A stretch of 24,000 nt of DNA from Kutzneria kofuensis (GCF_014203355.1 NZ_JACHIR010000001.1:1280038-1304037); one strand, 5' to 3'; counted from the stretch's first letter, positions 822 through 16,394 are shown. Program-made: numbers and translations. The notes: generated from the letters alone by a model not told the origin.

Positions 822-3800
822 TCAGGAAAGCCAGGCGCTGACGGCGGCCGCGGTGGTCGGGGCGTGGGCGTCCATCATCGAGAAATGGTCGCCGGGAACG
901 TCGACGGTGTCGTGCGGCCGGGCCCAGCAGGACTGCCAGTCCGACCGCTCGGTCCACGCCGGCAGCGGCTCGGACGCCCGCACGAGCAGGGTCGGCGCCG
1001 CGACGGGCTCGGGGCGGTGGTCGGCGAACAGCCGGAAGTACGCGGCCATGGCGGTCAGCCGAGCGTCTTCCGGGACGCCGGCTTCGGCCAACCGGGGCCG
1101 GATGCCGTCGAGCGCATGCCGGTCCTGCGGGTAGACGTCGATGAGCACGAGCGCCCGCAGCGCGGCGCCGTCGCGTTCCAGCCGGGCCGCCAGCGCGTTG
1201 GCCAGCGGGCCGCCGGAGGAATGCGCGACCAGCACGATCGGGCCGTCGATCCGGGACAGCGCGGCGACCTGGGCGGACAGGAGGGCGTCGAGGTCCTCGG
1301 GCAGCCGCTCCCCCGGCCCGAACCCGGGCACTGGCACGGCGTGCACGTCCCGGACGTCGCGGAACGCCGAGGCGAACCGGGCGTACTCGTACGGGCCGGA
1401 CATGGCCAGCAGGGACGGGACGCACACCAGCGCGGTTCCGGCCGGGCCGGAAGCCAGCCGGACCAGGTCGACTCCATCGGGATCGGACGGCCCGAACGTG
1501 GGCCGGAACCGGGCGGCTTCGGCGGTCACCGCGAGGAAGCCGTCGAGCTCGTCGAGTTCGACGGCACGCCGGAACATGGTGCCGAACATGCCCGGCGGTT
1601 CGGGCGACGCCGGCCGGGGGTCGGCCAGGTCGCCCGCGATCCGGGCGGCCAGCGCGGCCGGCGTGGGGTGCTCGAAGACCAGCGTCGGCGGCAGGCGCAG
1701 CCCGGTCGCGGCGGCGAGGTGGTTGCGCAGCTCGACGGCGGTCAGGGAGTCGAATCCGAGGTCCAGCAGGACGTCCTCCGGGTCGACGGCGTCGGCGCTG
1801 TCATGGCCGAGCACCGCAGCCACCTGGCTGCGGACCAGATCCAGCACCGCGGCCTCACGCTCGGGGCCGGTCAGCCGCGCGAGCCGCCGAGTGGCATCTC
1901 CGGGCGCGGCCCGGCGGGTCCGCACGCGCACGAGCCGGCTGAGCAGCGGCGGCACGGCGCCCGCGCGCACGGCGGCGAGGTCGAGCCGCATCGGCAGCGT
2001 GAGCGGAAGACCGCTGCCGAGTGCGACGTCCAGGAGGGCCAATCCCTCCTCTGTGGACAGTCCGAGAACGCCGGCGCGGGCAAGGCGTTCGACGTCGGCT
2101 TCGCCGGTCATCGCGCTGGTCGTGGCCCACAGGCCCCAGGCGATCGACGCGCCGGGCTTCCCGGCCGCGCGGCGTTGTGCCACCAGCGCATCCACATAGG
2201 CGTTCGCCGCCGCATAGGCGCCTTGTCCGGGGTTGCCGAACACGCCGGCGGCCGACGAGAACACCACGAACTTCTCGACGTCGGCCAGTTCGTGCAGCCG
2301 GACCGCGATGTCGGCCTTGGACTTGAGGACGGCGTCGATCCGTTCCGGTGTCAGGCTTTCGATCACGCCGTCATCGAGGATGCCGGCGGCATGGACGACG
2401 GCCGTCACCGGATGGGCGGCCAGCACGTCGGCCAGCTGTTCCGAATCGGCCGCATCGCAGGCCACAACGGCGGCCTCGGCGCCGAGCGCGGTCAGTTCGT
2501 CGGCGAGGTCACGCGCCCCGGGCGCGTCGGGGCCGGAGCGGCTGAGCAACACCAGCCCGCGGACGCCGTGCACCGTGGCCAGGTGCCGGGCGACGGCGCC
2601 GCCGAGAAGGCCGGTGCCGCCGACGATGAGGACGACGTCTTCGGGCTTCCAGTCGGGCTTGCCCGCAGCGGCGGTCCGCACCAGCCGTGGCACCAACGCT
2701 TGTCCGCTGTGGACGACGCCTTCGGGTTCGCCGATAGCCAGCCCGATTCGAGCCGCCTCGACAGGGTCCGCGTCCGTGTCGACGAGGACGAACCGGCCGG
2801 GGTGCTCGGATTGCGCGGAGCGCACGAGTCCCCAGACGGCGGCCAGTGCGGGGTTCGGAGATTCGACGGCGACCGCACCGCTGGTCACGATCACCAGCGG
2901 CAGCTCGGACGGTTCCGCAAGCCACGATTGAATCCGGCTCAGTGCGCGGTCGAGGACGTCACGGACATCCCCGGGCTCGCATATCCACAGCGGAGCGTCG
3001 GTCGCACCGTCACCGCTGGGCGCGGGCGTCCACTCGATGTGGAACAACGACTCGTGGTGGCCGGCCGATCCGGGCCGCAGCACGACGCCGGCGACCGAGG
3101 CCACTGGCTGTCCAGTGGGGTCGGCGAGGTCGATCGCGATGCCGTCGTTCGCGGGGGAAAGCCGGGCCCGCAGGGCGGTCGCGCCCCGCGAGAACAGCGA
3201 AACGCCCGACCAGGCGAACGGCAGGTGCACGCCGTCGCCGTCGATGAACTCGCCGAGGGCGACACCGTGGAGAACGGCGTCGAGCAACGCGGGGTGCAGG
3301 CCGCACGCGGTCGCGTCAGCATGGCGGTCCTCGGGCAGGTCGACCTCGACGAACACCTCGGGCCCGCGACGCCAGGCGGTGTGCAGGCCCTGGAACACCG
3401 GCCCGTACTCCAGCCCGGCGTCCGTTAGCACGTCGTAGAGGCCGTCGACCGCGACCGGCTCGGCGCCGGCCGGCGGCCAGGCCGTGAGATCGGCCGGAGT
3501 CCCGATGTCGGGGACGAGCAGCCCGTGGGCGTGCCGGGTCCACGGCCCGTCATCGGCCCGGGAATACACGGTGACATCACGGCTACCGCCGTCGGCGACA
3601 CCGCCGAGTTCCACGTACACCTGTCTGGCACCATCGAGGACGAGGGGTGCCTCCAACGTGAGGTCGCCCAGGGTGTGGCAGCCGACCTGCGCCCCCGCTT
3701 CGAGGGTCAGTTCGGCAAAAGCGGCGCCGGGTAACAGAACTGCTCCGCCGACCGCGTGATCGGCCAGCCAGGGATGGGTGTCGAGCGAGATCCGCCCGGT

Positions 3801-6593
3801 GCAGAGCAGGCCGTCGGTGCTGGGCACGGGCGCTGCGGTGCCGAGGAGCGGGTGCGCCAGGACGGACTGCCCCAGCGCGGCGGCGTCGACCTGGGTGGGT
3901 CCGCTTTCGAGCCAGAACCGCTTGCGTTGAAAGGCGTACGGGGGCAGGTCGACGCGCCGGGCGCCGGGGAACAGCGTGGTCCAGTCGGGGCTGAGGCCGT
4001 GGACGTGCGCCTCGGCGACCGAGGTGAGGAACCGCTGCGCACCGCCCTCGTCGCGGCGGAGACTGCCCAGGGCGACGGCCTGGATCTCGACCGCCTCGAT
4101 CCGTTCGGCGATGCCGGCGGTCAGCACGGGGTGGGCGCTGCACTCGATGAAGTACCGGAACCCGTCGGCCAACAGCCTTTGCACCGCCGGGTCGAAGCGG
4201 ACGGTGCCACGGAGATTCCGGAACCAATACTCAGCGTCGAGCTTCGCGGAGTCGCCCGGCACCGTGGAGTAGAACGGGATCTCCGGCTCGCGGGGTTCGA
4301 TCCCGGCCAGCGCGGTGAGGATGTCCCGCTCGATCACGTCCACATGGGACGAATGCGACGCATAGTCCACCGGCAGCCGCCGCGCCCGCACGCCCGCCGC
4401 CGCACACCGCGCCGCCACCTGGTCCAGCCCGGCCGGATCGCCGGAAACCACCACGGACGACGGCCCGTTCACCGCCGCCACCGACACGCCGTCGACCAGG
4501 AACTCCTGAACCTCCGGCGCGGCGACCGACATCATCCCGCCCCGTCCGGACAACGCCAGAATCGCCCGACTCCGCAGGCACACCACCCGGGCCGCGTCCG
4601 CCAGGCTCAACGCGCCCGACACGCACGCGGCCGCGATCTCACCCTGACTGTGCCCCACGACCGCCGCCGGTTCGATCCCGATCGCCCGCCACAACCGGGC
4701 CAGGGACACCATCACCGCGAACAGCACCGGCTGCACGACGTCCACGCGCTCCAAGGCGGCAGCATCCCCCAGCACCTCGGACAGCTTCCAGTCCACATGC
4801 GACAGGAAGGCCCGTTCGCAGTCAGCCATGGCCTCGGCGAACACCGACGACGAACTCCACAGCTCCGCCGCCATCCCGACCCACTGCGAACCCTGGCCGG
4901 GGAACACGAAGACGGCCTTGCCACCCGACAGGGCGCGGCCGGTCACCGTCAGCGGCGACGGCTCGCCCGCCGCGAGGGCGGCCAGCGCAGCTCGAAAGTC
5001 GTCCGGTACGGCGCCTACGACGGCGGCTCGATGCCCGAACGCAACCCTGGTCGTCGCCAGTGAGAATCCGATATCGGCAGGGTCACCCGTGACCGTGGCC
5101 AAACGCGCGGCCTGCCCCGGCAGCGCCTCCGGCGTCTTCGCCGACAGCACCCACGGCACCGGGCCGATCACCACGTCGGCGGGCGGCTCGACATTCTCCG
5201 TGGCAGGCGCCTGCTCCAGGATGATGTGCGCGTTCGTCCCGCTGATCCCGAACGACGACACCCCGGCCCGCCGCGGGCGATCCACCGCCGGCCACGCTCG
5301 CGTCTCCGTCAACAACGACACCGCGCCGGCCGACCAGTCCACATGGGACGATGGCGCGTCCACGCCCAACGTCCGGGGCAACACACCACGACGCATCGCC
5401 TCGACCATCTTGATGATCGACGCCACCCCGGCCGCCGCCTGCGTGTGGCCCAGGTTCGACTTCACCGAACCCAACCACAGCGGCTCCGCCCGATCCTGCC
5501 CGTACGTCGCCAGCAACGCCTGCGCCTCGATCGGATCACCCAGCGTCGTCCCGGTCCCGTGCGCCTCGACAACGTCCACATCGGACGTGGAGAGCCGGGC
5601 GTCGGCCAGCGCGGCGCGAATCACCCGCTGCTGCGACGGGCCGTTCGGCGCGGTCAGCCCGTTCGAAGCGCCGTCCTGGTTCACTGCCGTGCCCCGCACC
5701 ACTGCCAGAACCCGATGCCCCAGCCGCTCCGCGTCGGAAAGCCGCTCCACCAGCACCATCCCGACGCCCTCGGCCCACGCCGTGCCGTCGGCCGCCTCCG
5801 CGAACGCCTTGATCCGCCCGTCCGGGGCCAACCCGCGCTGCCGGCTGAACTCGACGAACGAGCCGGGGCTGGCCATCACCGTCACTCCCCCGGCCAGCGC
5901 CATCGTGCACTCGCCGCGCCGCAGCGACTGCACGGCGAGGTGCAGGGCCACCAGGGACGACGAGCAGGCGGTGTCGATGGTGACCGCCGGACCCTCCAGC
6001 CCGAACGTGTAGGACACGCGGCCGGAGGCGACGCTGCCGGAGTTCCCGGTGCTCAGGTGCCCACCGACCTCGTCCGGAATGGACTCGAGCCCGGACACGT
6101 AGTCGTGGTACATCAGTCCGGCGAACACACCGGTCCGGCTGCCGCGCAGGGATTCCGGGTCGAGCCCGGCGGACTCGAACGCCTCCCACGACGCCTCCAG
6201 CAGCAGCCGGTGCTGCGGGTCCATGGCCAGCGCTTCCCGCGGCGAGATCCCGAAGAACGCCGGATCGAAGTCGGCGACGTCGTGCAGGAATCCGCCGTGG
6301 CGCACGTAGCTGGCGCCAGCACGGTCCGGATCCGGGTCGTGCAGCGCTTCGAGGTCCCAGCCGCGGTCGGCCGGGAAGCCCGAGATCCCGTCCCGCTCCT
6401 CGACGAGCATCCGCCACAGGTCGTCCGGCGTGCGGACGCCGCCCGGATACCGGCAGGCCATGCCGACGATCGCGATCGGCTCGGTCGCGGCGGCGCGCAC
6501 GTCCCGCAGCCGGCCCCTGGTCTCGTGCAGTTCGGCGGTGACCTGCTTGAGGAAGTGCCGCAGCTTGTCCTCGGTGCCGGACCGGTCGTTCAT
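822..6593 (-). CDS. Type I modular polyketide synthase, single module KS-AT-DH-KR-ACP-TE (1923 aa)
   Basis: I chose the ATG at 6593-6591 ([11 protein letters not shown]...) because the KS begins 37 aa later and this ATG overlaps the GT stop (ATGA). Stop TGA at 824-822. Motifs read in the translation: KS DTACSSS (Cys210, nt 5964-5966), EAHGTGT, KSNLGHT. AT GHSQGE (Ser649, nt 4647-4649), RVDVVQ, YASH (nt 4353-4364). DH HPLL and [11 protein letters not shown] (His946, nt 3756-3758). [10 protein letters not shown] (nt 2598-2621), LDD (nt 2370-2378), YAAAN. ACP LGFDSL (Ser1616, nt 1746-1748). TE AHSSG (Ser1792, nt 1218-1220) and GDHF (His, nt 885-887). Confidence 0.95.
825..1589 (-). other. PKS C-terminal type I thioesterase (TE) domain, aa ~1669-1923
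   Basis: Alpha/beta-hydrolase pattern: LVCVPS, GxSxG variant [15 protein letters not shown], and a terminal GDHFSMM histidine. Confidence 0.85.
1635..1862 (-). other. PKS acyl carrier protein (ACP) domain, aa ~1578-1653
   Basis: [13 protein letters not shown], with the phosphopantetheine-attachment Ser at nt 1746-1748. Confidence 0.9.
2124..3044 (-). other. PKS ketoreductase (KR) domain, structural plus catalytic subdomains, aa ~1184-1490, B-type
   Basis: NADPH-binding loop [12 protein letters not shown] motif in HAAGILDDG, catalytic region [19 protein letters not shown]. Ends near AWGLWA. Confidence 0.85.
3072..3857 (-). other. PKS dehydratase (DH) domain, aa ~913-1174
   Basis: Contains HPLLG, the HxxxGxxxxP motif ([11 protein letters not shown]), [10 protein letters not shown] and [11 protein letters not shown]. 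Boundaries are approximate. Confidence 0.85.
4029..4916 (-). other. PKS acyltransferase (AT) domain, aa ~560-855, with methylmalonyl-CoA-type motifs
   Basis: Contains [27 protein letters not shown] and SAHPVL. The C-terminal boundary is approximate. Confidence 0.85.
5211..6482 (-). other. PKS ketosynthase (KS) domain, aa ~38-461
   Basis: Runs from [15 protein letters not shown] to [10 protein letters not shown]. The Cys-His-His triad is present (TACSSS, EAHGTGT, NLGHT), so this is a condensing KS, not a KSQ loading type. Confidence 0.9.
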
Positions 6594-7768
6594 GCGGCCA
6601 CCACGGCCTCCAGATGGGCGACGGCGGCCTCGATCCCCGGCAGCGCGAGCACGGCGCGCTTGGCCCGGCGGACCTGGGCGGCGATCCTGGTGTCGGACAG
6701 CACATCGCGGCAGGTCTCGAACACCGCGTCGGCCGTGGTCTCGGGGATCCGCGCGCCCAGGCCGAACTCCGCGAGCCGGTCGGCGTTGTGCGGCTGGTCG
6801 CCGAACTGCGGCAACGCCGCCATCGGCACGCCGGCCCGCACCGACTCGCGGATGCTGTTGTAGCCGGCGTGGGTCAGGAACAGCTGCGCGCATTCCAGCA
6901 GCGCCGGCTGCGGCATCCGATCGACCACGTGCACGTTCGCCCCGACCTGGATGTCCCCGACCGGGAACCCGGCCGTGGCCACCACGGCTTGACAGTCCAC
7001 ACGCGACAGTCCGTGGACGATGGCCCGCAGCGTGACGTCGGGGTTCTCCATGTCCTCGGGCGGGTCGATGCCGAGCTCCTTGAACGCGCCCATCATCGGC
7101 AGCGCCGTCCCGACGGACGCGATCACCAGCGGCCGATCGGCCGGCAGCGCGGCGATGTCCGCGGGCAGCACCTCGTTGCTCGCCACCGAACCGGGCTGGC
7201 GGTAGGTGAACGGTGTGGGCAGGTCGAACGCGGCGAACGAGTACTCGGCGGGCAGGCAGTCCAGCCGCCCGTGGCGGTGGATCGACGCCGCCGTCGTCTC
7301 CCCGGCGAGGCCGAGCTCCCGCCGCCGCTCGTTCAGCGGCTCGACCAGGCCCACCGGGTCGATCAGGTTGCCGGCCCCGGACGGGGCCGACAGGCACGGG
7401 ACGCCGAGCTGCTCGGCCACCAGCACCGCGGCCAGCTCCGCGCCGTCGCGCAGCACCAGATCCGGGGCGAACTCCTTGGCCAGCGGCATGATCGCCTGGT
7501 ATGCGGCCGTCACGTGCGGGCCCGCCGCCGTGGCCAGCAGCTGTTCGCGGACGTCCCGCCGCTGCTCCGCGCGGACCATCCGGCTGATCGACTCGACCAC
7601 GCCGGGCAGCACCGGGGCCACGCGCGGCAGGTCCGGCTCGAACACTCCGGCCAGCTCCGGCGGAACCGTCACCAGCACCTCGTGTCCGGCCGCGGCGACG
7701 GCCCGGGCCAGTGGCAGCATCGCGCGCGCGTGTCCCTGGGAGCCGGTCACGCTGCACAGAACTCGCAC
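6590..7768 (-). CDS. GT1-family (GT-B fold, UGT/MGT-like) glycosyltransferase, 392 aa
   Basis: GTG start at 7768 with an AGAGGA Shine-Dalgarno about 8 nt upstream. Stop TGA at 6592-6590 overlaps the PKS ATG. The N-terminus ([31 protein letters not shown]) and the C-terminal nucleotide-sugar motif ([31 protein letters not shown]) are typical of UDP-glycosyltransferases. Confidence 0.9.
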
Positions 7769-8104
7769 AATGGTTTCCTCTCGCTCGGCGACCGCAGGCA
7801 GGACTGAAGGCCACCCACGAAATCGTGCGCAGCGTCGGTGGAGCGCCGGTCCGGCCGGCCCTGTCGACGCTAGGACCCCTTTCCCGGCACCGATAACCCC
7901 TAGCCGCCCCTACGGGCCGAGTTGTCCACTATGGACTGCCAGTTGCCGCTGGCCGTCCGGTGGTCACGCCTGCCCTGTCAGCCTGTCGGCGTAGAGCGCC
8001 GGCCACGTCCGAGCGAGTGATTCACCGCCGGGACACGTATCGATCGCGTGCCGGCGGCCGAAGTCCCTGACGTCGAACACTGCCGTTCACACTGGAGCCA
8101 GTTG

Positions 8105-8614
8105 ATGACGAGTTCGGTCCGCGCCACCGCGCAGAACACCGTGACCATCACCTACGACCTCACCCTGCCCGACAAGACCGAGATCTCCGGCACGGAGACA
8201 TGCACCACCGGCCAGAACACCGGCGCGCCCAGGTACTACCGCCGCCGGGCCGACGGTCGGGACCGCCGGGGGAGGTTGCAGTACTTCCACATGTGGGACC
8301 CCGACGCCCAGCTGTTCGACTGGCTGGCGAACGAGGTGTTCGAGTACTACGAGGCCGACCCCGACGCCTACTTCGACGGCGCCGCCGGGGCGACGGGCAC
8401 GATCACCGTCGTCGACGACCAGGGCCCGTGCCACTCCTGCCGGTCGGTGATCGCCCAGTTCAAGCGGGAGTTCCCGAAGGTCGCGATCACCGTCAAGTAC
8501 GCGACCGGCGACACCAACCGGGCCACCCGGGCCGCCGGCGTCGGCAAGGGGATCTACGGCTACGACAAGGGCGCCGTGCACGACGGCCTCGGTTGGTGGA
8601 CCAAGACGTTGTGA
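8105..8614 (+). CDS. Hypothetical cytoplasmic protein (169 aa) with a deaminase-fold-like PCxxC signature; function unknown
   Basis: ATG at 8105 preceded by GGAG (8094-8097) with a 7-nt spacer; the track start at 8048 lacks an RBS. Third-position GC is very high throughout. Motif ITVVDDQGPCHSCRSVIAQFKREFPKVAITVKY has Cys109 and Cys112 at nt 8429-8440. No signal peptide or TM helix is visible. Stop TGA at 8612-8614. Confidence 0.7.
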   Translation: MTSSVRATAQNTVTITYDLTLPDKTEISGTETCTTGQNTGAPRYYRRRADGRDRRGRLQYFHMWDPDAQLFDWLANEVFEYYEADPDAYFDGAAGATGTITVVDDQGPCHSCRSVIAQFKREFPKVAITVKYATGDTNRATRAAGVGKGIYGYDKGAVHDGLGWWTKTL

Positions 8615-8620
8615 GTCACA

Positions 8621-8645
8621 GGGGGTGCGGGCCACCCGCACCCCC
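8621..8645. terminator. Bidirectional terminator hairpin between the convergent orphan gene and the DUF4232-like gene
   Basis: Perfect 11-bp GC-rich stem: GGGGGTGCGGG (8621-8631), loop CCA, CCCGCACCCCC (8635-8645). It sits between the stops at 8614 and 8658. Confidence 0.7.
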
Positions 8646-8657
8646 GTGCCCGACCGG

Positions 8658-9155
8658 TCAGCTGGTGCCTTCGCCCTGGCCCAGGCCGAGACCGGTCCGC
8701 CAGGCGCTGACCAGGACGCCGTCCTTCTGGATGTCGAACGCGCCCGGCGTGCCGAAGTACGTGCCCCGGAACGACTTGTCCGGCATGGCCAGCCGCAGGG
8801 TGCTGACCGGAACGGCGTTCTCGGGCAGGTCGGGGCGGTGGTAGGCGATCTGGGCGTGCAGCGGGCTGTCCGGGCGCAGGACGAGGGTGCCGCCACGGCC
8901 GTCGACGTGCACGGGAATGTCGGCGCCGGGGCCGGAGACGGTGACCAGCGGCGTGTCGGGGAGGGTGCAGGCGACGCCGTCGTGGGCCAGCAGCGTCAGG
9001 TCGAAGGTGCCGAGGCTGAGGTTCTGGCTGAAACCGCCGAAGTAGAACGACACGATGTCGGCGCCGCACGGCACGGGCGGGGCCGTGACGGCCGCCGCCG
9101 GCGCGGCCGAGAGGGCGGCCCCGGCCACCAGGGCGAGGAGGGCGAGCTTCTTCAT
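8658..9155 (-). CDS. Secreted protein, DUF4232-like (165 aa)
   Basis: ATG at 9155 (MKKLALLALVAGAALSAAPAAA, a Sec-type signal peptide) with GGGAGA 8 nt upstream. Two spaced Cys residues in a beta-rich sequence (PVPCGAD...DGVACTLPDTPLV) resemble DUF4232; that family call is from memory only. The upstream part of the 294-aa track ORF overlaps the peptidase gene in another frame. Confidence 0.7.
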   Translation of the reverse strand: MKKLALLALVAGAALSAAPAAAVTAPPVPCGADIVSFYFGGFSQNLSLGTFDLTLLAHDGVACTLPDTPLVTVSGPGADIPVHVDGRGGTLVLRPDSPLHAQIAYHRPDLPENAVPVSTLRLAMPDKSFRGTYFGTPGAFDIQKDGVLVSAWRTGLGLGQGEGTS

Positions 9156-9172
9156 CGTAGGAATCTCCCGGG

Positions 9173-10477
9173 TCAGAAGGCGGCGAGCCCGTGCGGGGAG
9201 CCGAGGCCGGTGGGGCCGTCCCAGCCGGGGCCGGCGTTGCAGACCGCCGAGCCGGAGCCGGGGAAGTCGGCGCAGTGGTGGAAGATCTCGTTGTTGCCGC
9301 TGGTCACGTCGTTGAAGGCGGAGGCCTTGGCGGCATACAGGGTGTTGGGACCGTCCACAGCGGACAGGTGGCCGGCGCGGGCGTAGAGGCCGGCGATGTA
9401 CGGGGACGAGGCGCTGGTGCCGCCGATGACCAGCCAGTTGTTGGGCTCGTCGCCGGTCGGCGCGTAGGTGTCGTAGACGGCGACGCCGGTCGAGGGGTCG
9501 GCGTCGGCGGACACATCGGCGGCGGCGCGGTGCCCGTTGCACGCGGCGGTGACGGCCTTGGGTTGCCCGTTGGCCTTGGCGAAGGCGGTCTCGCAGCCGC
9601 TGCCGGCGAGGGACCAGGCGGTTTCCTTGCCGGCAGCGGGCAACGTCGTGCCACCGACGGCGACCACGCCGGGCAGGTTGGACGGCCAGCTCTGGTGGAC
9701 GCCGCCGTTGAAGCCTTCGTCCCCGGTGGATGCCGTGATGGCGACTCCCTTGTGGGACAAGGCCGCCAACGTGTCGCCATGGGTGTTGGTGACGTCGGCG
9801 GTGTAGCCGTAGCTGATGCTCACCGCGGACGCGCCGGCCTTGATCGCCGTCCGGACGGCCGCCGCGAAGTCACCGGTTGACACGTCGTTGTCGTCGATGG
9901 CGTCCTGCCACGGCACCGACACGTACATCAGCCGGCAGGACGGGCAGGCGGCCGACGCCATGTCGACGTCGAGCGAGGTCTCGGCGGCCACTTCCTCCTC
10001 GATCGCCGCCCCCTGACCGCTCTGCTGCGGCGCCACCTGCGGACCGCCGGTGTAGTCCAGCAGGCGCAGGCAGCCGCTCTGCTCGGTGCACGCCGGCAGC
10101 CCGAACGTCGCACGGTAGGTCGCCAGATCGGCCGCCAGGTTGCCGTCGACACCGGCGCCGATGACGGCAATCGTTGCCGTGCTACGGGAATTCGCCGGCA
10201 ACGAGTACGCCGTGGCCAGCTCGCTGGGCGAGTAGCCGGCCGGTTCCGTGGTGCGCAACGGGGTCGCGCCGCCCGGCTTCGCGGTGACCACCAGGGCATC
10301 ACATTGCCGGCAAACCGGTCGCACGCCGTGGTTCTGCAGCAGTGTCGCCGCATGCACCTGCTGGTGCAGCTGCGTCGCCGACGGAGTTGGTCGGCCCGCG
10401 ACGGCAATCGGGCTGCCGACGATTCCCACCAGAACCGTGACGGCGACGGCCGTCACGGTTGATCGCGCCCAAGACAT
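9173..10477 (-). CDS. Secreted S53-family (sedolisin/kumamolisin-like) serine peptidase
   Basis: Motifs AETSLDVDMASAACP (Glu/Asp), ASTGDEG and GGTSASSPYIAGL (Ser nucleophile). Signal peptide MSWARSTVTAVAVTVLVGIVGSPIAVAG. Start is either the ATG at 10477 or an in-frame TTG at 10504. Stop TGA at 9175-9173, 17 nt upstream of the next gene's start. Confidence 0.85.
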   Translation of the reverse strand: MSWARSTVTAVAVTVLVGIVGSPIAVAGRPTPSATQLHQQVHAATLLQNHGVRPVCRQCDALVVTAKPGGATPLRTTEPAGYSPSELATAYSLPANSRSTATIAVIGAGVDGNLAADLATYRATFGLPACTEQSGCLRLLDYTGGPQVAPQQSGQGAAIEEEVAAETSLDVDMASAACPSCRLMYVSVPWQDAIDDNDVSTGDFAAAVRTAIKAGASAVSISYGYTADVTNTHGDTLAALSHKGVAITASTGDEGFNGGVHQSWPSNLPGVVAVGGTTLPAAGKETAWSLAGSGCETAFAKANGQPKAVTAACNGHRAAADVSADADPSTGVAVYDTYAPTGDEPNNWLVIGGTSASSPYIAGLYARAGHLSAVDGPNTLYAAKASAFNDVTSGNNEIFHHCADFPGSGSAVCNAGPGWDGPTGLGSPHGLAAF

Positions 10478-10621: not shown

Positions 10622-11212
10622 TCAGCCCCGGGGCCCGAGCAGGGCGATGGAGGCCTGGACGGCCGTCTCGGTGATGTCGGTGGCCTCGCCGCCGTCCTCC
10701 ACGTTGCTGGCGATCAGCTCCCGCAGGCCGCCGAGCAGCACGATGGCCATCTGACGGGACACCCGGCCGATGCCCATGGCCCGCAGGCTCTCGGTGTCGG
10801 TGAGGGACTGGACCATGTCGATGAACTTCTCCATCAGGTCCCGCTGCAGGTCGCGGCCGAGGACGCCGAGCGCGGGGATGTCCCGGATCCAGCTGTGGGT
10901 GACGGCGCGCTGGGCGTCGCTGCAGGCCAGCCACTCCTCGACGGCCTGCCGGACCTGGGTCGGCCATGAGGCCGTGGGGTCGACGGCGGCGGAAATGCGC
11001 CGGATCATCTCGTCGTTGGTCTCGGTGATCAGGGCGACGAAGCAGGTTTCCTTGCTGGTGAAGTGCTCGTAGAAGGTCCGCCGGGAGGTCCTGGCCAGGC
11101 GCACGATGTCGGCGACGGTGGTGTCGCGGTAGCCGATGTCGGCGATGGCCGCCGCCAGCCCGTCGAGCAGCCGCCGCCGGAAGTCGGTCTGGACGCTCGT
11201 CACCATGGTCAC
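10622..11212 (-). CDS. TetR-family transcriptional regulator
   Basis: N-terminal HTH (GYRDTTVADIVRLARTSRRTFYEHFTSKETCF). GTG at 11212 has GGAGG 6 nt upstream; the alternative ATG at 11206 lies 12 nt from it. The remainder of the 819-aa track ORF is antisense to the P450 and SDR genes. Confidence 0.9.
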   Translation of the reverse strand: MTMVTSVQTDFRRRLLDGLAAAIADIGYRDTTVADIVRLARTSRRTFYEHFTSKETCFVALITETNDEMIRRISAAVDPTASWPTQVRQAVEEWLACSDAQRAVTHSWIRDIPALGVLGRDLQRDLMEKFIDMVQSLTDTESLRAMGIGRVSRQMAIVLLGGLRELIASNVEDGGEATDITETAVQASIALLGPRG

Positions 11213-11251
11213 GGTATACCTCCCCGTTCGGCGTCGACGCCTTGAGCTCGC

Positions 11252-11269
11252 TGGTACGTGAGCGTACCA
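11252..11269. promoter_or_regulatory. Candidate TetR operator 1 (7-4-7 palindrome)
   Basis: TGGTACG-TGAG-CGTACCA with perfect 7-bp inverted arms, in the 96-102 bp (depending on the TetR start) TetR/P450 divergent intergenic region. Confidence 0.6.
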
Positions 11270-11275
11270 TCGGCC

Positions 11276-11293
11276 TGGTACGTTGGCGTACCA
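11276..11293. promoter_or_regulatory. Candidate TetR operator 2 (7-4-7 palindrome)
   Basis: TGGTACG-TTGG-CGTACCA, with arms identical to operator 1. Centres are 24 bp apart. It ends 15 nt before the P450 ATG. Confidence 0.6.
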
Positions 11294-11308
11294 CATGGGA
11301 GGCGCATC

Positions 11309-12649
11309 ATGGCGACGCTGCCACCGGGACCGTCCACACCACGGCTGGCGCAGGCGGTGTCCGCGCTGATGAGACCGGGACGCGGCTTCCGCCAGGCGCG
11401 CGCGAGGTACGGCGACGCCTTCACCATCAACTCGCCGCTGTTCGGCCGGGCCCTGGTGATCAGCGACGCCGCCGAGATCAAGCAGCTGTTCCAGGCGGGC
11501 GCCGAGATCGCCGACAACATCGAGCCCAACCTCGGGCGGGTGCTCGGCTCCGGCTCGCTGTTCGCCCTGTCCGGCGACGAGCACCGCCGGCAGCGCAAGC
11601 TGCTGGTGCCGCCGTTCCACGGCCGCCGGCTCGCGGCGTACGAGCAGATCATGGAGGAGGAGACCCTGCGGGAGTTCGCCTCCTGGCCGCGAAACCAGCA
11701 GTTCGCCACGCTGCCGTCGATGATGCGGATCACGCTCAACATCATTCTGCGGGCGGTGTTCGGGGCCGAGGGCGCGGAGTTCGACCGGCTGCGGGACCTG
11801 CTGCCGGCCTTCGTCAAGCTCGGGTCGCTGCTGGCGGTGCTGCCCGTCCCCAAGGTCGACTGGGGCCGGTGGAGCCCGTGGGGCCGGTTCCGCCTGATGC
11901 GCCGGGAGTACGACGAGATCGTCGAGCGGCTGATCGCCAAGGCGGAGCGGGACGGCAGCCTCGACGAGCGCGAGGACATCCTGGCGCTGATGCTGCAGGC
12001 CCGCTACGACGACGGCACGGCGATGAGCCACGGCGACATCGCCGACCAACTGCTGACCCTGCTCACCGCCGGCCACGAGACCACCGCCACCACCCTGGCC
12101 TGGGCGGTGGAGCGGCTGCGCCGCCACCCGGACGTGCTGCGCGACCTGACCGAGGAGACCCGCACCGGCGGGAAGACCCTGCGGGAGGCCACCATCCTGG
12201 AGGTCCAGCGGACCCGGCCGGTGATCGACATGGTCGGCCGCAAGATCAAGGCCGACGGGGCCCGGCTCGGCCGGTGGACGCTGCCCAGGGGACAGACGGT
12301 GCTGGTCGGCATCGCGTTGATCCACGAGGACCCCGACCTGTTCCCGAATCCGCGGGCCTTCGACCCGTACCGGTTCGTCGGCACGAAACCCGATCTGTAC
12401 CAGTGGATCCCGTTCGGCGGCGGCAGCCGGCGGTGTCTCGGCGCGGCGTTCGCGACCATGGAGATGAACGTGGTGCTGCGGGCCCTGCTCCGTGACTTCG
12501 ACCTCATCCCCACGGCCCTGCCGGACGAGCCCTGGCACTCTCGGGGCATCGCGAACGCCCCGGCCAAGGGCGGCCTCGCGGTCGTCCGCCCCCGGACCCT
12601 GATCGACGACCACGTGACGAGGAGTGCCGATGCCCCGACAGCTTCCTAG
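11309..12649 (+). CDS. Cytochrome P450 monooxygenase (446 aa)
   Basis: ATG at 11309 (MATLPPGP) with GGGAGG 7 nt upstream. Motifs AGHETT (I-helix), EVQR (ExxR) and the heme loop FGGGSRRCLG. The track start at 11258 lies inside the operator palindromes. Confidence 0.9.
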   Translation: MATLPPGPSTPRLAQAVSALMRPGRGFRQARARYGDAFTINSPLFGRALVISDAAEIKQLFQAGAEIADNIEPNLGRVLGSGSLFALSGDEHRRQRKLLVPPFHGRRLAAYEQIMEEETLREFASWPRNQQFATLPSMMRITLNIILRAVFGAEGAEFDRLRDLLPAFVKLGSLLAVLPVPKVDWGRWSPWGRFRLMRREYDEIVERLIAKAERDGSLDEREDILALMLQARYDDGTAMSHGDIADQLLTLLTAGHETTATTLAWAVERLRRHPDVLRDLTEETRTGGKTLREATILEVQRTRPVIDMVGRKIKADGARLGRWTLPRGQTVLVGIALIHEDPDLFPNPRAFDPYRFVGTKPDLYQWIPFGGGSRRCLGAAFATMEMNVVLRALLRDFDLIPTALPDEPWHSRGIANAPAKGGLAVVRPRTLIDDHVTRSADAPTAS

Positions 12650-13460
12650 GCTCACCGGCCGGCCGGTGATGATCACCGGCGCCGCCTCCGGCATCGGCCG
12701 CAGCCTCGCGCTGCGGCTGAACCGGCTCGGCTCGCCGGTGGCCGTCGCCGACGTGGACGCCACGGGGCTCAAGCAGACCGCCGCCTCGCTGCGGGGCACG
12801 GTGCTGACCCGCGTCCTGGACGTCAGCGACGCCGCCGACCAGCGGAAATTCGCCGACGAGGTGCGGGACTGGCTGCCCGCGCCGCTGGCCGCGGTGTTCA
12901 ACAACGCCGGCGTCGCGCTGTCGTCCACGGTGCTCGACGCCGATCCCGAGGACGACAACTGGCTGTACGACATCAACTTCCACGGCGTGGTCAACGGCAC
13001 CCGGGCGTTCCTGCCGATCCTGGTCGGGCAGGGCGAGGGCGTCATCGTGAACACGTCCAGCGTGTTCGGGCTGGCCGGCATGCCGTACCAGAGCGCCTAC
13101 TGCGCGGCCAAGTTCGCCGTCCGCGGCTTCACCGACTCGCTGCGCCAGGAGCTGCGCGGCACCGGCGTCAGCGCGGTCACCGTGCACCCCGGCGGCATCA
13201 AGACGAACATCGTCCGAAATGGACGGATGCGGCAGGATCCCGAGGGCCGCGAACGGTCGAAGGAGGAGATGGCGGCCTCGTTCGAGGCGATCGCCATGAC
13301 CACGCCGGACAAGGCGGCGCAGATCATCCACCGCGGCGTGGAGAGCGGCAAGGCCCGCATCCTCGTCGGCCCGGACGCGTACGTGTTCGACGCGCTGATG
13401 CGTATCGCCCCCACCCACTACTTCGACCTGCTCGGCCGGTTCGTCTCCCGCCGCGGTTAA
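12630..13460 (+). CDS. Short-chain dehydrogenase/reductase (SDR)
   Basis: TGAASGIG, NNAG, and Ser...YCAAK catalytic motifs. ATG at 12630 with GAGGAG 5 nt upstream; it overlaps the P450 3' end by 20 nt. Stop TAA at 13458-13460. Confidence 0.9.
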   Translation: MPRQLPRLTGRPVMITGAASGIGRSLALRLNRLGSPVAVADVDATGLKQTAASLRGTVLTRVLDVSDAADQRKFADEVRDWLPAPLAAVFNNAGVALSSTVLDADPEDDNWLYDINFHGVVNGTRAFLPILVGQGEGVIVNTSSVFGLAGMPYQSAYCAAKFAVRGFTDSLRQELRGTGVSAVTVHPGGIKTNIVRNGRMRQDPEGRERSKEEMAASFEAIAMTTPDKAAQIIHRGVESGKARILVGPDAYVFDALMRIAPTHYFDLLGRFVSRRG

Positions 13461-13469
13461 GGAGCCCTT

Positions 13470-14945
13470 GTGCCCAGCGAACATCTGGACGTCCTGATCG
13501 TCGGCGCCGGCCTGTCCGGCGTCGGCGCGGCGCACCACATCCACACCGCCTTCCCGCGCCGGACGTACGCGATCCTGGAGGCCCGCGAGGCCAGCGGCGG
13601 CACCTGGGACCTGTTCCGGTACCCGGGCGTGCGCTCCGACTCGGACATGCAGACCCTCGGCTACCGGTTCCGGCCGTGGACGCAGGCCAAGGCCATCGCC
13701 GACGGGCCGGCCATCCTCGACTACATCCGGGAGACCGCCGCCGAGGCCGGCATCGACCGGCACATCCGTTACGGCCACAAGGTTGTCGCCGCCTCATGGT
13801 CCACAGAGGACTCGCGATGGACGGTCGAGGTCCAGCGTGACGGCGAAACCGTGCAGTTGACGGCGAACTTCCTCTACCTGTGCACCGGCTACTACCACTA
13901 CGACGGCGGCTACGCGCCGGCCTTCCCGGACGTCGAGCGGTTCGCCGGGCCGGTGATCCACCCGCAGCAGTGGCCGGAAGACCTGGACTACGCGGGCAAG
14001 AAGGTCGTCGTCATCGGCAGCGGCGCCACCGCGGTCACCCTCGTGCCGGCCATGACCGACAAGGCCGAGCACGTGACCATGCTGCAGCGCTCCCCCACGT
14101 ACATCCTGGCCCGGCCGGGCGAGGACAAGCTGGCCAACCGGCTGCGGAGGCTGCTCGGCGACCCCCTGGGCTACATGGTGACGCGGTGGAAGAACGTCGC
14201 CATGGCCACGCTGATCTACCGGCTCAGCCGGCGCCGGCCCGGGATGATCCGGTCGTTCATCCGCAACGAGACCGTGAAGCTGCTGCCGCCCGGCTACGAC
14301 GTGGACACGCACTTCAAGCCCCGGTACGACCCGTGGGACCAGCGGCTGTGCCTGGTGCCGGACGGCGACCTGTTCCGGGCCATCCGCCACGGCCGCGCGT
14401 CGGTGGTCACCGACGAGATCGCCGGCTTCACCGAGACCGGGATCCGGCTGCGGTCCGGCGCCGACCTGCCCGCGGACGTCGTCGTCACGGCGACCGGGCT
14501 GCGGTTGCTGGCGTTCGGCGGCATCCGGCTGGCGGTGGACGGCAAGGAGATCAAGCTGCCGGAAACCCTGGCGTACAAGGGAATGATGCTCAGCGGCCTG
14601 CCGAACTTCGTGTTCACCATCGGCTACACCAACGCGTCGTGGACGCTGAAGGCCGACCTGGTCGCCGAGTACACGGTCCGCCTGCTGCGGCACATGGACG
14701 AGCACGGCTACACCCAGTGCGTGCCGGTCAACGACGGTCCCGAGATCACCGAACGGCCGCTGCTGGACTTCGCCGCCGGCTACGTCCAGCGGTCCGTGCA
14801 CGAGTTCCCCCGGGCCGGGTCGCGCCGGCCGTGGCAGCTGGGCATGAGCTACGCCAACGACGTGCTGCTGCTGCGCCACGGCCGGATCGACGACGGAACC
14901 CTGCGCTTCCGGGCAGCCGAGCGGCGGCCGGTCAGGAGCCGCTGA
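13470..14945 (+). CDS. Flavin-dependent Baeyer-Villiger monooxygenase, EthA-like
   Basis: GTG at 13470 with AAGGAG 5 nt upstream. FAD motif GAGLSG, NADPH motif GSGATA, and the type I BVMO fingerprint FAGPVIHPQQWP (FxGxxxHxxxWP). Confidence 0.9.
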   Translation: MPSEHLDVLIVGAGLSGVGAAHHIHTAFPRRTYAILEAREASGGTWDLFRYPGVRSDSDMQTLGYRFRPWTQAKAIADGPAILDYIRETAAEAGIDRHIRYGHKVVAASWSTEDSRWTVEVQRDGETVQLTANFLYLCTGYYHYDGGYAPAFPDVERFAGPVIHPQQWPEDLDYAGKKVVVIGSGATAVTLVPAMTDKAEHVTMLQRSPTYILARPGEDKLANRLRRLLGDPLGYMVTRWKNVAMATLIYRLSRRRPGMIRSFIRNETVKLLPPGYDVDTHFKPRYDPWDQRLCLVPDGDLFRAIRHGRASVVTDEIAGFTETGIRLRSGADLPADVVVTATGLRLLAFGGIRLAVDGKEIKLPETLAYKGMMLSGLPNFVFTIGYTNASWTLKADLVAEYTVRLLRHMDEHGYTQCVPVNDGPEITERPLLDFAAGYVQRSVHEFPRAGSRRPWQLGMSYANDVLLLRHGRIDDGTLRFRAAERRPVRSR

Positions 14946-16347
14946 CCAGCAGGTCCGCGATAGCGGCGATACCGGCCTCGATGGCGCGTCGAGGCGTGTC
15001 GCCGAAGCCGAGGACCAGCCGCGGTTCGGTCGGCGGCGTGTGGCACATCCGGGCCAGGCCGTGCAGCCCGACGCCGCGCCGCCGGGCCTGCTCGATCACG
15101 TGGTCCTCGTCGGCGCCGGCGGGCAGGTGCAGGACGGCGTGGAAGCCGGCGGCGAGGCCGGTGACGCGGAGGCCGGGGGCGTGCGTCGCGAGGGCGGCGA
15201 CGAGCGTCTCCCGGCGCGCGGCGTACTCGGCGCGGGCCCGGCGCAGGTGCCGGTCGTAGCGGCCGGACTCGACCAGCAGGGCCAGCGCGAGCTGGTCGAG
15301 GCTGGGGCTGCCGCGGTCGGCGACGTGCTTGCCGTGGGCCAGCGCGCCGAGCAACCGGTCGGGGGCGACGACCCAGCCCAGGCGCAGGGCCGGCGCGAGG
15401 GACTTGCTGACCGTGCCGAGCGAGACGACGCAGTCGGGGCCGAGGCCCTGGACCGAGCCGACGGGATCCCGGTCGTAGCGGAACTCGGCGTCGTAGTCGT
15501 CCTCGATGATCACGCCGTTGTGCCGGCGGGCCCACGCGATCAGCTCCTGCCGGCGGTGCCCGGCGAGCACCACGCCGGTGGGCCACTGGTGGGCCGGCGT
15601 CACGAGCACGGCCCGCGCTCCACTGCGTTCGAGCGCGGCGACGTCCAGGCCGTCCTCGTCGACCGGGACGGGCAAGACCGTCAGGCCGGCGGCGTGCGCC
15701 TGCTCGGTCGTCGACCCGATGGCGCCGGGATCCTCGACGGCGAGCGCGTCGACGCCGTCGGCGGCCAACGCCCGCAGCACCAGGCCGAGCGCCTGGGCCA
15801 TGCCGTTGCAGACGACGACCTGGTCGGCAGCGGCGGCGACTGCCCGAACCCGTCGCAGGTACGCGGCGAGCACCTCCCGCAGCCGACGTTCGCCGGTTGG
15901 ATCGCCGTAGTCGAAGGCCGTGTTCGGGGCCGTACGGCAGACCTCGCGGACCGCCCATGCCCAGTCCTCACGCGGGGCGAGGCGCAGATCCGGGACGCCG
16001 TGCCGGAAGTCCGCGATGGCGTGCCGCGGCGGTACAGGCGGGGTCTCTGGCGTTGACGCGACCGGCCGGGCGGCCGCGCCGGCAGCGACCCGTGTCGCGG
16101 AGCCGGGGCGGCTGGTCAGGTAGCCCTCGGCCTGCAGCTGGACGTAGCAGTCCTGCACGAGACCCCGGGACAGGCCCAACGCCCGGGCGAGTTCACGGGA
16201 GGAGGGCAGCCGTTCCTCGGCGGCCAGCCGGCCTTCGCGAACGGCCTCGCGCAGCTGGTCCTCCAGCTGGGAACGGAGCCCGGCGCCGCCCTCCCGGTCG
16301 ATCGCGATCAGCAGCTCCGGCCCCGAACCGGCCCACTCCACAGCCAT
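14932..16347 (-). CDS. MocR/PdxR-type regulator (GntR HTH fused to a PLP aminotransferase-like domain)
   Basis: N-terminal LPSSRELARALGLSRGLVQDCYVQLQAEGYL (GntR wHTH). C-terminal fold-type-I aminotransferase region with the lysine motif LGTVSKSLAPALRLGW. Confidence 0.9.
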   Translation of the reverse strand: MAVEWAGSGPELLIAIDREGGAGLRSQLEDQLREAVREGRLAAEERLPSSRELARALGLSRGLVQDCYVQLQAEGYLTSRPGSATRVAAGAAARPVASTPETPPVPPRHAIADFRHGVPDLRLAPREDWAWAVREVCRTAPNTAFDYGDPTGERRLREVLAAYLRRVRAVAAAADQVVVCNGMAQALGLVLRALAADGVDALAVEDPGAIGSTTEQAHAAGLTVLPVPVDEDGLDVAALERSGARAVLVTPAHQWPTGVVLAGHRRQELIAWARRHNGVIIEDDYDAEFRYDRDPVGSVQGLGPDCVVSLGTVSKSLAPALRLGWVVAPDRLLGALAHGKHVADRGSPSLDQLALALLVESGRYDRHLRRARAEYAARRETLVAALATHAPGLRVTGLAAGFHAVLHLPAGADEDHVIEQARRRGVGLHGLARMCHTPPTEPRLVLGFGDTPRRAIEAGIAAIADLLVSGS

Positions 16348-16394
16348 GAAACCGGACCTTACCGGTGGACCGGTTCGCTCGTAGCGTTTCCGCC

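Follow-up and report, generated by a model that had tools for sequence, protein, structure and literature searches.

The operon found at positions 822-7768 of the analysed window (24,000 nucleotides of the Kutzneria kofuensis genome) codes for a glycosyltransferase (GT) and a single-module polyketide synthase (PKS). It is best explained as a co-regulated satellite of a split cluster of the ECO-0501/conkatamycin type, a family that makes linear guanidino-polyketide glucuronides; to this cluster it would contribute the chain-terminating module and a glucuronosyltransferase. This reading, to which we give an even chance, is substantially supported, not proven. Since the operon carries the promoter element of the ECO-0501-type cluster family, it does not appear to be a self-sufficient mini-pathway. 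A terminal module of a split cluster had been the alternative proposed in the first-pass annotation; it gains support from the presence of a main cluster in the same genome, the lack there of one GT orthologue, and a promoter element shared by the two loci.

Both genes lie on the minus strand. The GT gene (7768→6590) starts with GTG and encodes 392 residues, and the PKS gene (6593→822) is an uninterrupted 5.8-kb ORF encoding 1,923 residues. An ATGA overlap joins the TGA stop of the former to the ATG of the latter. Past the PKS gene, a perfect hairpin (781-814; 15-bp stem, 4-nt loop; −37.5 kcal/mol, z −4.7) sits between this gene and a convergent gene of the VC0807 family. It is likely a bidirectional intrinsic terminator devoid of a T-tract, which is why the consensus terminator scan missed it. 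Consensus scans for sigma-70 promoters and T-tract terminators returned no matches, as expected at 72% GC. At the other end, a divergent intergenic region of 336 bp (7769-8104) separates the GT gene from a deaminase-toxin-like gene starting at 8105. The two-gene layout, the hairpin, and the divergent region had all been described from a first inspection, and each of them holds, the first through the ORFs and their ATGA overlap. The same is true of the reported lack of a second PKS gene and of discrete ACP, PPTase, FAAL, or CoA-ligase genes: none occurs in the window, in the next 10 kb of the source contig downstream, or in 7.7 kb upstream. PKS pseudogene fragments are likewise absent from the window and these flanks, and no remnants of other cluster genes were found in the ~41 kb around the operon. 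The operon is thus free of PKS neighbours for at least 10 kb on its downstream and 25 kb on its upstream side. A search for mobile elements yielded no tRNA or meaningful flanking repeats. The window and its flanks belong to contig 1 of assembly GCA_042428765.1. The operon sequence is identical across two K. kofuensis assemblies, and in a third one the PKS gene is split, as are several adjoining genes.

The PKS (822-6593, minus strand, as are all its domains) is a type I modular enzyme, scoring 1795 bits with the NCBIfam model PKS_plus_SDR (modular; cut-off 1740). Its KS, AT, DH, KR, ACP, and TE domains each exceed the curated Pfam cut-offs. They are preceded by an N-terminal docking domain (6492-6575, residues 7-34; PF08990, 29.5 bits, cut-off 20.9) that the first-pass annotation did not mention. 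The KS domain (5361-6482, residues 38-411) matches PF00109 and PF02801, and harbors a triad of the Cys211/His346/His383 type in the motifs DTACSSS, EAHGTGT, and KSNLGHT, which align with those of its relatives. The AT domain (3993-4913, residues 561-867) displays GHSQG and YASH, the motif rule for methylmalonyl-type AT domains, and its predicted specificity is for methylmalonyl-CoA. The DH domain (3057-3854, residues 914-1179) possesses HxxxGxxxxP and DAVLH motifs. The KR domain (2124-2633, residues 1321-1490) exhibits GGTGLLG (consensus GGTGxLG), the LDD motif of B-type KRs, and the S/Y/N catalytic residues. The ACP (1638-1838, residues 1586-1652) carries its phosphopantetheine attachment site in GFDSL, and the TE (831-1430, residues 1722-1921) has a Ser/Asp/His triad (AHSSG, D, GDH). 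Among solved structures, the latter is best matched by the Pik TE (E about 1e-52) and the DEBS TE (about 1e-46). Its AHSSG motif is not a mark of decay, because it is common to the TEs of four relatives (L002, L003, P0373, and P0366). Every catalytic motif is preserved, and neither a frameshift, a stop, nor a motif loss is present in 7 kb of coding sequence. The complete KS-AT-DH-KR-ACP-TE module and the condensing KS with a Cys-His-His triad, as originally proposed, are both confirmed.

In all cases, the full-length relatives of this PKS turned out to be the last subunit of a multi-subunit PKS. The same single-module terminal protein is found in Amycolatopsis (L002/L003) and in L015, where it is encoded by the last PKS gene, directly after another PKS gene. 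The closest relative, P0366 (locus L014), was found by an exhaustive ACP-TE search of representatives, and is 74% identical in the KR domain, 56% in the TE, and 55% overall with gaps. The start of its contig cuts into its gene, which adjoins starter-unit genes of an ECO-0501-like cluster. An ACP-TE search of a word-indexed database retrieved only short fragments of at most 51% identity, and a full-length search returned no orthologues, its top ranks being filled by two-module proteins. This last search also revealed a further modular PKS fragment (P0001) in the K. kofuensis genome; a recent exchange with it was discarded, its domain identities (47-75%) being no higher than those of foreign PKSs. 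The docking domain is 72-83% identical to those of three terminal subunits (L002, L003, and P0373), all of which do have an upstream partner. Because it is of the terminal-subunit type, the idea of a chimeric PKS with an early-module N-terminus was rejected. Terminal subunits of the DEBS3/PikAIV type share the same domain order on a polypeptide of their own, as well as a class-1-like N-terminal docking domain; however, their genes come right after those of the partner PKSs, whereas the K. kofuensis PKS has no such neighbour.

These relationships bear on the view, preferred in the first-pass annotation, that the operon is a minimal self-contained unit. The module would be primed by an acyl-CoA or a fatty acyl thioester and would extend it once or iteratively, leading to a short- or medium-chain 2-methyl-2-enoic acid that the GT would glycosylate. 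The operon's own promoter region and strong hairpin, its intact domains, and the absence of a partner gene nearby speak for such a unit. Yet the docking domain is typical of transfer between subunits, the close relatives are all terminal subunits of multimodular lines, and neither a loading domain nor an ACP gene, a FAAL, or a PPTase accompanies the module. Membership of the iterative and lipid clades (Mas/Pks2-like, Pks13, aromatic iPKS, PUFA) was judged by NCBIfam scores and by the nearest homologues. The scores fall far under the cut-offs (Pks2, 911 against 2400 bits; Pks13, 750 against 2100; PfaA, 359 against 1010), and the nearest PKS homologues are all modular. Furthermore, a homologue search found no conserved stand-alone GT-PKS pair elsewhere, hence no two-gene family of this kind, and the relatives of the GT reside in large clusters. 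The self-contained unit is not supported by this evidence, and we consider it improbable. A similarly low probability is assigned to the broader proposal of either an autonomous two-enzyme pathway, in which a KS self-primed from an acyl-CoA or a fatty acyl carrier, and perhaps iterative, would lead to a glycosylated 2-methyl-2-enoic acid, or a free-floating terminal module docking onto more than one assembly line: the docking domain, the contexts of the homologues, and the shared promoter (see below) all argue against full autonomy.

The operon GT (6590-7768, minus strand) belongs to the GT1 family, with matches to PF00201 (53 bits) and PF06722 (46.5 bits; UDPGT/macrolide-GT-like). It carries the GT-B fold signature, with a catalytic His near the N-terminus and a nucleotide-sugar motif in the C-terminal part, and its GSQGH and HAGYNS motifs are invariant among homologues; its PDB matches include YjiC, OleD, and CalG1. 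Assignment to the MGT equivalog was rejected (95.8 bits against 260). Its closest relative is the GT of A. japonica (73% identity; L004), which is encoded in the block UGDH-GT-ligase-ALAS-ligase-PKS, followed by a GT (70%) from metagenome sample 3300012940, the sample that also contains P0366. All its relatives are found within large ECO-0501/conkatamycin-type clusters. A GT scan of the contig collection, made without the source genome, retrieved only two Amycolatopsis loci, and the GT-PKS pair is lineage-specific, since the other Kutzneria genomes hold no GT above 73% identity.

The ECO-0501 cluster of Amycolatopsis orientalis ATCC 43491 comprises an oxidoreductase (ORF13), a GT (ORF14), C5N genes (ORF15-17), PKS genes (ORF18-23), and starter-unit genes (ORF24/25/7) (PMC8037709). 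The order of the A. japonica block matches the published order of ORF13-18 (PMC8037709), and the operon GT is an orthologue of the ORF14-position GT in clusters of this type; it is thereby a probable polyketide glucuronosyltransferase, with a predicted sugar specificity. Conkatamycin (ktm) is a guanidino polyketide with GlcA; its UDP-GlcA comes from a cluster-encoded UDP-glucose dehydrogenase, and Ktm28 is a predicted UDP-glucuronosyltransferase (PMC9448795). Ktm28 is closer to the GT of L002 (62%) and to a GT of the K. kofuensis main cluster (GT402, 56%) than to the operon GT (54-55%).

This main cluster, of the ECO-0501 type, is located on contig 92, ~1,360 genes away from the operon, and in a further K. 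kofuensis assembly both loci belong to a single contig of 8,737,631 bp. Judging by the numbering of the protein accessions (MBB5889968/69 for the operon, MBB5891328-37 for the main cluster) and not by coordinates, they would be roughly 1.5 Mb apart. The main cluster harbors starter-unit genes (an amine oxidase 69% identical to that of L014, a CN-hydrolase, and a VinK-like AT), C5N genes (an ALAS and an ALA-CoA ligase, 76% and 70% identical to those of A. japonica), sugar genes (three GTs, a PIG-L, and two UGDHs, one of them 69% identical to that of A. japonica), an MFS gene, and a PKS starting with a loading ACP. UGDH, arginine-derived starter genes (amine oxidase, amidohydrolase, ligase, and AT), and a multimodular PKS are present at the main cluster, and all are absent from the window and its flanks. 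Conversely, the three main-cluster GTs, at 48-49% identity against 73% for the operon GT, do not include the ORF14 orthologue, which was found only in the operon. The operon GT has diverged from its Amycolatopsis counterpart to the same extent as the genes of the main cluster (69-76%). An orthologue of the ECO-0501 amide synthetase (ORF15) was found at neither of the two loci.

A second link between the two loci is provided by the divergent region of the operon, in which two boxes were detected by k-mer comparison with shuffled controls. Box B (7896-7913, minus strand; GTAGGGGCGGCTAGGGGT) contains TAGGGG twice as a direct repeat, 10 nt apart, and box A (7861-7874, minus strand; CCTAGCGTCGACAG) follows 21 nt downstream, leaving 92 nt to the start of the GT gene. 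The boxes and those of the promoter of the main-cluster AT-PKS operon differ by one mismatch per box, with the same spacing and orientation. The family element, as defined in this analysis and not in the literature, reads TAGGGG-N4-TAGGGGT, about 21 nt, CCTAGSGTCGA. It is exact at 7861-7913, and also occurs upstream of operons in eight other loci (L019, L008, L006, L014, L004, L002, L003, and L016). In A. japonica, too, a TAGGGG box precedes the UGDH-GT and the PKS operons. Box B is found upstream of related-cluster operons of Amycolatopsis, Nocardia, and a metagenome, and the element recurs in related clusters of four organisms besides K. kofuensis. A single match to the box pattern is present in the window, where 0.01 would be expected. 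As the boxes alone are conserved in an otherwise unrelated intergenic region, they appear to be under selection. The element may mark the binding site of a pathway regulator in Amycolatopsis, Nocardia, and Kutzneria, and it connects the operon to the regulon of a large cluster, a further argument against an autonomous unit. A palindrome upstream of the boxes, GTCCAYAGTGGAC, was dropped as evidence because it also occurs in coding DNA. The output of blastn-short between the operon promoter and the main cluster was mostly noise.

A different reading starts from the gene order. In clusters of the ECO-0501 type, the GT is placed after UGDH and ahead of both the C5N genes and the first PKS, whereas in K. 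kofuensis it is coupled to the last PKS, an estimated ~1.5 Mb from the other genes. Metagenome 3300012940 (L006 and L014), which provides the closest terminal module (P0366) and the second-closest GT and has the same promoter boxes, illustrates this difference: unlike in the K. kofuensis operon, the GT heads the cluster (UGDH-GT-ligase-NRPS-MbtH-P450-PKS), and the terminal module is at the opposite end, on another contig, next to the starter-unit genes. In Nocardia (L016), with the order promoter-GT-ligase-PKS-PKS…, the block of PKS genes likewise has the GT at one end and the terminal module at the other. The direct adjacency of the two genes in K. kofuensis, with no other cluster gene or fragment in 41 kb, could therefore mean that the pair is what remains of an ECO-0501-type cluster, collapsed or second: an ancestral operon running promoter-GT-…-PKS genes-terminal PKS would have lost or exported everything but its two end genes. 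Both end genes would then be intact but biosynthetically idle, devoid of an upstream partner. The lineage-specific distribution of the pair and the presence of three GTs in the main cluster are in line with such a collapse. On the other hand, decay is nowhere visible in the coding DNA, the genes are precisely coupled by ATGA, and their ends are native: the C-terminus of the GT aligns to the ends of homologous GTs, and the N-terminus of the PKS is of the terminal-module type. The selective conservation of the promoter boxes points the same way, and the terminal module (about 55% identical to its relatives) is no more diverged than the main-cluster PKS (53-59%). A relic is regarded as possible but less likely.

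In the split-cluster satellite, the PKS would act as the chain-terminating subunit, its docking domain taking over a near-complete polyketide from the subunit that ends the main line. The KS would join this chain to one methylmalonyl unit, the choice of the AT predicted from GHSQG/YASH, and the B-type KR and the DH would, according to their motifs, generate a 2-methyl-2-enoyl end. Release by the TE would follow, probably hydrolytic, as for the linear relatives. The translationally coupled GT would add a sugar, probably glucuronic acid supplied via the UDP-glucose dehydrogenase of the main cluster. The sequence match between the two promoters suggests that both loci are switched on together through the two-box TAGGGG-repeat element, presumably by a regulator binding to it. 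Several points count against the satellite: the main cluster may end in a TE-terminated module of its own, which would make the operon redundant; with three GTs already in the main cluster, one of them Ktm28-like (56%), there is no evident need for a fourth; the ORF15 orthologue is missing from both loci; and conserved promoter boxes would also be compatible with a recent relic, in which they would persist for some time.

If the cluster is indeed split, K. kofuensis would make an ECO-0501-like, anti-Gram-positive polyketide of the glycolipid type, with the genes for its last extension, its release, and one glycosylation lying about 1.5 Mb outside the cluster. Genome mining by cluster would then report a truncated main cluster and a puzzling single-module "T1PKS", both with mispredicted products. 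A comparative study of Kutzneria lists seven T1PKS regions in K. kofuensis, as counts and without annotation of the operon locus. If the operon is instead a relic, it would represent a clean example of the collapse of an assembly-line cluster, with both ends of the operon left intact. The TAGGGG-repeat element offers a practical handle for tying scattered genes to their cluster. Of note, CTAG is ~15-fold depleted in the K. kofuensis genome, and two of the four CTAGs of the window lie within the operon promoter.

With about even probability, the two-gene operon at 822-7768 is a co-regulated satellite of a split ECO-0501-type pathway, pairing a chain-terminating module with an ORF14-type, probably glucuronosyl, transferase. 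This reading builds on the observed domain content, docking domain, orthology pattern, remote main cluster and shared promoter element. The window has a GC content of 72% and is identical in sequence to contig JBHMBX010000001.1 of K. kofuensis assembly GCA_042428765.1. The GT gene (7768→6590, minus strand, 392 aa) and the PKS gene (6593→822, minus strand, 1,923 aa) are joined by an ATGA overlap of GT stop and PKS start. Gene calls and overlap agree with the two-gene operon of the first-pass annotation, and the hairpin (781-814; 15 bp stem, −37.5 kcal/mol, z −4.7) and divergent control region (336 bp, upstream of the GT) that it described are found as well. A mechanically listed 2,330-aa ORF (822-7814) consists of the PKS extended by out-of-frame read-through across the GT. 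In a second K. kofuensis assembly, GCA_039535315.1 (loci L011/L018), the PKS is broken into 583 and 1,361 aa, as are SDR, MFS, GntR, a GT and UGDH genes that are intact in other assemblies (L012/L017); these splits are probably assembly frameshifts, not biology.

The PKS harbors Docking, KS, AT, DH, KR, ACP and TE domains (Pfam). All catalytic motifs are intact: C/H/H in the KS, GHSQG and YASH in the AT, HxxxGxxxxP, YGP and DxxxH in the DH, GGTGxLG, LDD and S/Y/N in the KR, DSL in the ACP, and AHSSG, D and H in the TE. It is the complete reducing module with a condensing KS triad that had been annotated. Established motif rules predict a methylmalonyl-specific AT and a B-type KR, and the module would therefore be expected to yield a 2-methyl-2-enoyl terminus. 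Absent from the first-pass annotation is an N-terminal docking domain of the erythronolide-synthase type (residues 7-34; 29.5 bits vs a cut-off of 20.9), which shares 72-83% identity with the N-termini of the single-module terminal subunits of two Amycolatopsis loci (L002, L003) and of the homologue P0373. The same architecture sits behind another PKS gene in every relative with visible upstream context: a PKS ending in KR-ACP precedes the L002 and L003 subunits, and a 7,158-aa PKS that of locus L015. The closest PKS relative, P0366 of metagenomic locus L014, is a DH-KR-ACP-TE fragment (55% identical with gaps, KR 74%) cut off by the contig start and followed by starter-unit genes. The NCBIfam class of the protein is modular, and Mas/Pks2, Pks13 and PUFA models score far under their cut-offs, which argues against an iterative or lipid-type PKS. 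The AT specificity motif varies among related terminal modules, being YASH here (AT 3993-4913), an unusual AAGH in L002, L003 and P0373, with a CCR gene adjoining in L002, and HAFH in the homologue P0378. The best AT match is another K. kofuensis PKS, P0001 (59%), which hints at AT exchange within this genome.

The GT belongs to the UDPGT/EryCIII-like families (Pfam), is full length and conserves the catalytic His and nucleotide-sugar motif. Its relatives are found in A. japonica (73% identity; UGDH-GT-ligase-ALAS-ligase-PKS), in metagenome 3300012940, the sample of P0366 (70%; UGDH-GT-ligase-NRPS-MbtH-P450-PKS), in Nocardia (57%; PIG-L-UGDH-GT-HisK-...-GT-ligase-PKS-PKS) and in the conkatamycin cluster, where Ktm28 (54%; PMC9448795) is a predicted UDP-glucuronosyltransferase. 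The A. japonica block follows the published ECO-0501 order ORF13 to ORF18 (PMC8037709). Other Kutzneria genomes hold no GT more than 73% identical to that of the window. The latter lacks an 11-residue loop of the acceptor-side N-terminal domain (~residues 68-72, 7550-7570 region), present in 6/6 aligned homologues. Both GT and PKS are new members of well-known families; what is unusual is their genomic separation from the main cluster and the promoter link to it.

Another K. kofuensis GT, P0154, was the starting point from which this main cluster was read along contig 92 (JBHMBX010000092.1, ~17-50 kb; L008/L017/L019). In gene order, it comprises a LAL-type LuxR regulator, an amine oxidase (69% to that of L014), two GTs with a histidine kinase and an ABC transporter, a small GerE-type regulator, a CN-hydrolase, an ALA-CoA ligase and an ALAS (70% and 76% to those of A. 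japonica), a second histidine kinase with a third GT, UGDH415, PIG-L and UGDH446 (the last 69% to the ORF13-position gene of A. japonica), an MFS gene with a VinK-like acyltransferase, and a PKS opening with a loading ACP and extending past the end of the fetched DNA. Judged from these sequences, the locus belongs to the ECO-0501/conkatamycin type. Its three GTs do not include the ORF14 orthologue (48-49% identity to the A. japonica GT); the orthologue is the GT of the window (73%), at a distance from Amycolatopsis comparable to that of main-cluster genes (69-76%). A further K. kofuensis assembly carries operon and main cluster on one contig of 8,737,631 bp; their accessions, MBB5889968/69 and MBB5891328-37, respectively, are ~1,360 CDS apart, which would place them roughly 1.5 Mb from each other. 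Seven T1PKS regions are reported for K. kofuensis (PMC10232511). The main cluster combines parts of two cluster types, ECO-0501-like (UGDH446, ALAS, ligase; 69-76% to A. japonica) and L002/Nocardia-like (UGDH415, 70%; PIG-L, 74%; GT408). Its three GTs and two UGDHs suggest a product more heavily glycosylated than ECO-0501; no ORF15-type amide synthetase is seen in the fetched main-cluster DNA.

The operon promoter carries, in GT sense, box B, GTAGGGGCGGCTAGGGGT (7896-7913), with two TAGGGG repeats 10 nt apart, and 21 nt downstream box A, CCTAGCGTCGACAG (7861-7874). In the main cluster, the AT-PKS operon is preceded at 43 nt by the same two boxes, identically spaced and oriented and each differing at one position. 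Box B, alone or together with box A, also precedes the amine oxidase, UGDH446 and ALAS genes there; copies of the element in this cluster are at L019 7996-8044 and 9827-9841 and at L008 3957-3973 and 6925-6941. In related clusters box B likewise precedes UGDH-GT, PKS, CCR-GT and amine-oxidase operons, with copies in the metagenome (L006 8277-8326 and 17967-17981; L014 10338-10352), A. japonica (L004 766-780 and 8348-8362), Amycolatopsis (L002 8598-8614) and Nocardia (L016 9909-9923). The pattern (TAGGGG-N4-TAGGGGT, about 21 nt, CCTAGSGTCGA) occurs once in the window vs 0.01 expected, and the intergenic regions are unrelated outside the boxes. CTAG is about 15-fold depleted in the window (4 observed vs about 62 expected from base composition; 7870, 7900, 12646, 22588), with two of the four sites in the operon promoter, and the few copies in fetched K. 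kofuensis DNA cluster in cluster promoter regions. No description of this two-box element was found in the cited literature; it probably marks a putative pathway-regulator binding site, and the shared boxes offer the strongest evidence for the operon's likely membership of the main cluster's regulon. The TAGGGG boxes are preceded, at a distance of 11 nt, by an upstream palindrome, GTCCACTATGGAC (7924-7936). Palindromes resembling it stand before the boxes of the main cluster's amine-oxidase and ALAS genes, and copies of the motif are found in coding DNA too. Regulators of the GerE/LuxR type and HisKA_3 kinases are recurrent in these clusters.

The docking domain, the position of relatives behind upstream PKS genes and the shared promoter argue against the minimal self-contained unit first proposed; autonomous function of the two genes has no positive support and is very improbable. 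The split cluster, then offered as the alternative, is favoured by the remote ECO-0501-type cluster, an ORF14 orthologue only at the operon, and the shared boxes. In relatives, the PKS block lies between GT and terminal module, and loss of this interior could have brought the two together here. Such a relic is the chief rival reading, less probable than the satellite; 7 kb of intact coding sequence, native gene ends and selectively conserved promoter boxes speak against it. As a satellite, the operon would be co-regulated with the main cluster; its PKS would dock onto a main-cluster PKS subunit, extend the chain with methylmalonyl and release it hydrolytically, and its GT would transfer GlcA.

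The remainder of the window contains no polyketide-assembly-related gene. On the source contig, another 10 kb downstream and 7.7 kb upstream are likewise free of genes for a PKS, ACP, PPTase or acyl-AMP ligase, and no pseudogene fragments turn up in tblastn searches with proteins of the PKS and cluster; the reported isolation of the operon therefore stands. Neither tRNAs nor flanking repeats were found. Divergent from the GT is a deaminase-toxin-like protein (8105-8614, plus strand, 169 aa; BURPS668_1122-type toxin-deaminase domain, 34 bits), followed on the minus strand by two proteins with signal-peptide-like N-termini, one without a family match (8658-9155, 165 aa) and one weakly similar to mycosin/PatA-type serine protease models (9173-10477, 434 aa); these genes (8105-10477) could form a polymorphic-toxin locus. 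A TetR regulator gene divergent from a P450-SDR-flavin (Baeyer-Villiger-type) monooxygenase operon (10622-14945) resembles a cassette for catabolism or oxidative tailoring and has no evident PKS link. The rest comprises a MocR-type GntR/aminotransferase regulator gene divergent from an MFS transporter gene (14932-17549), a secreted GH35 β-galactosidase with an NPCBM domain (17628-21665; 1,345 aa), and VC0807-family, PNPOx, DUF4440 and M20 peptidase genes.
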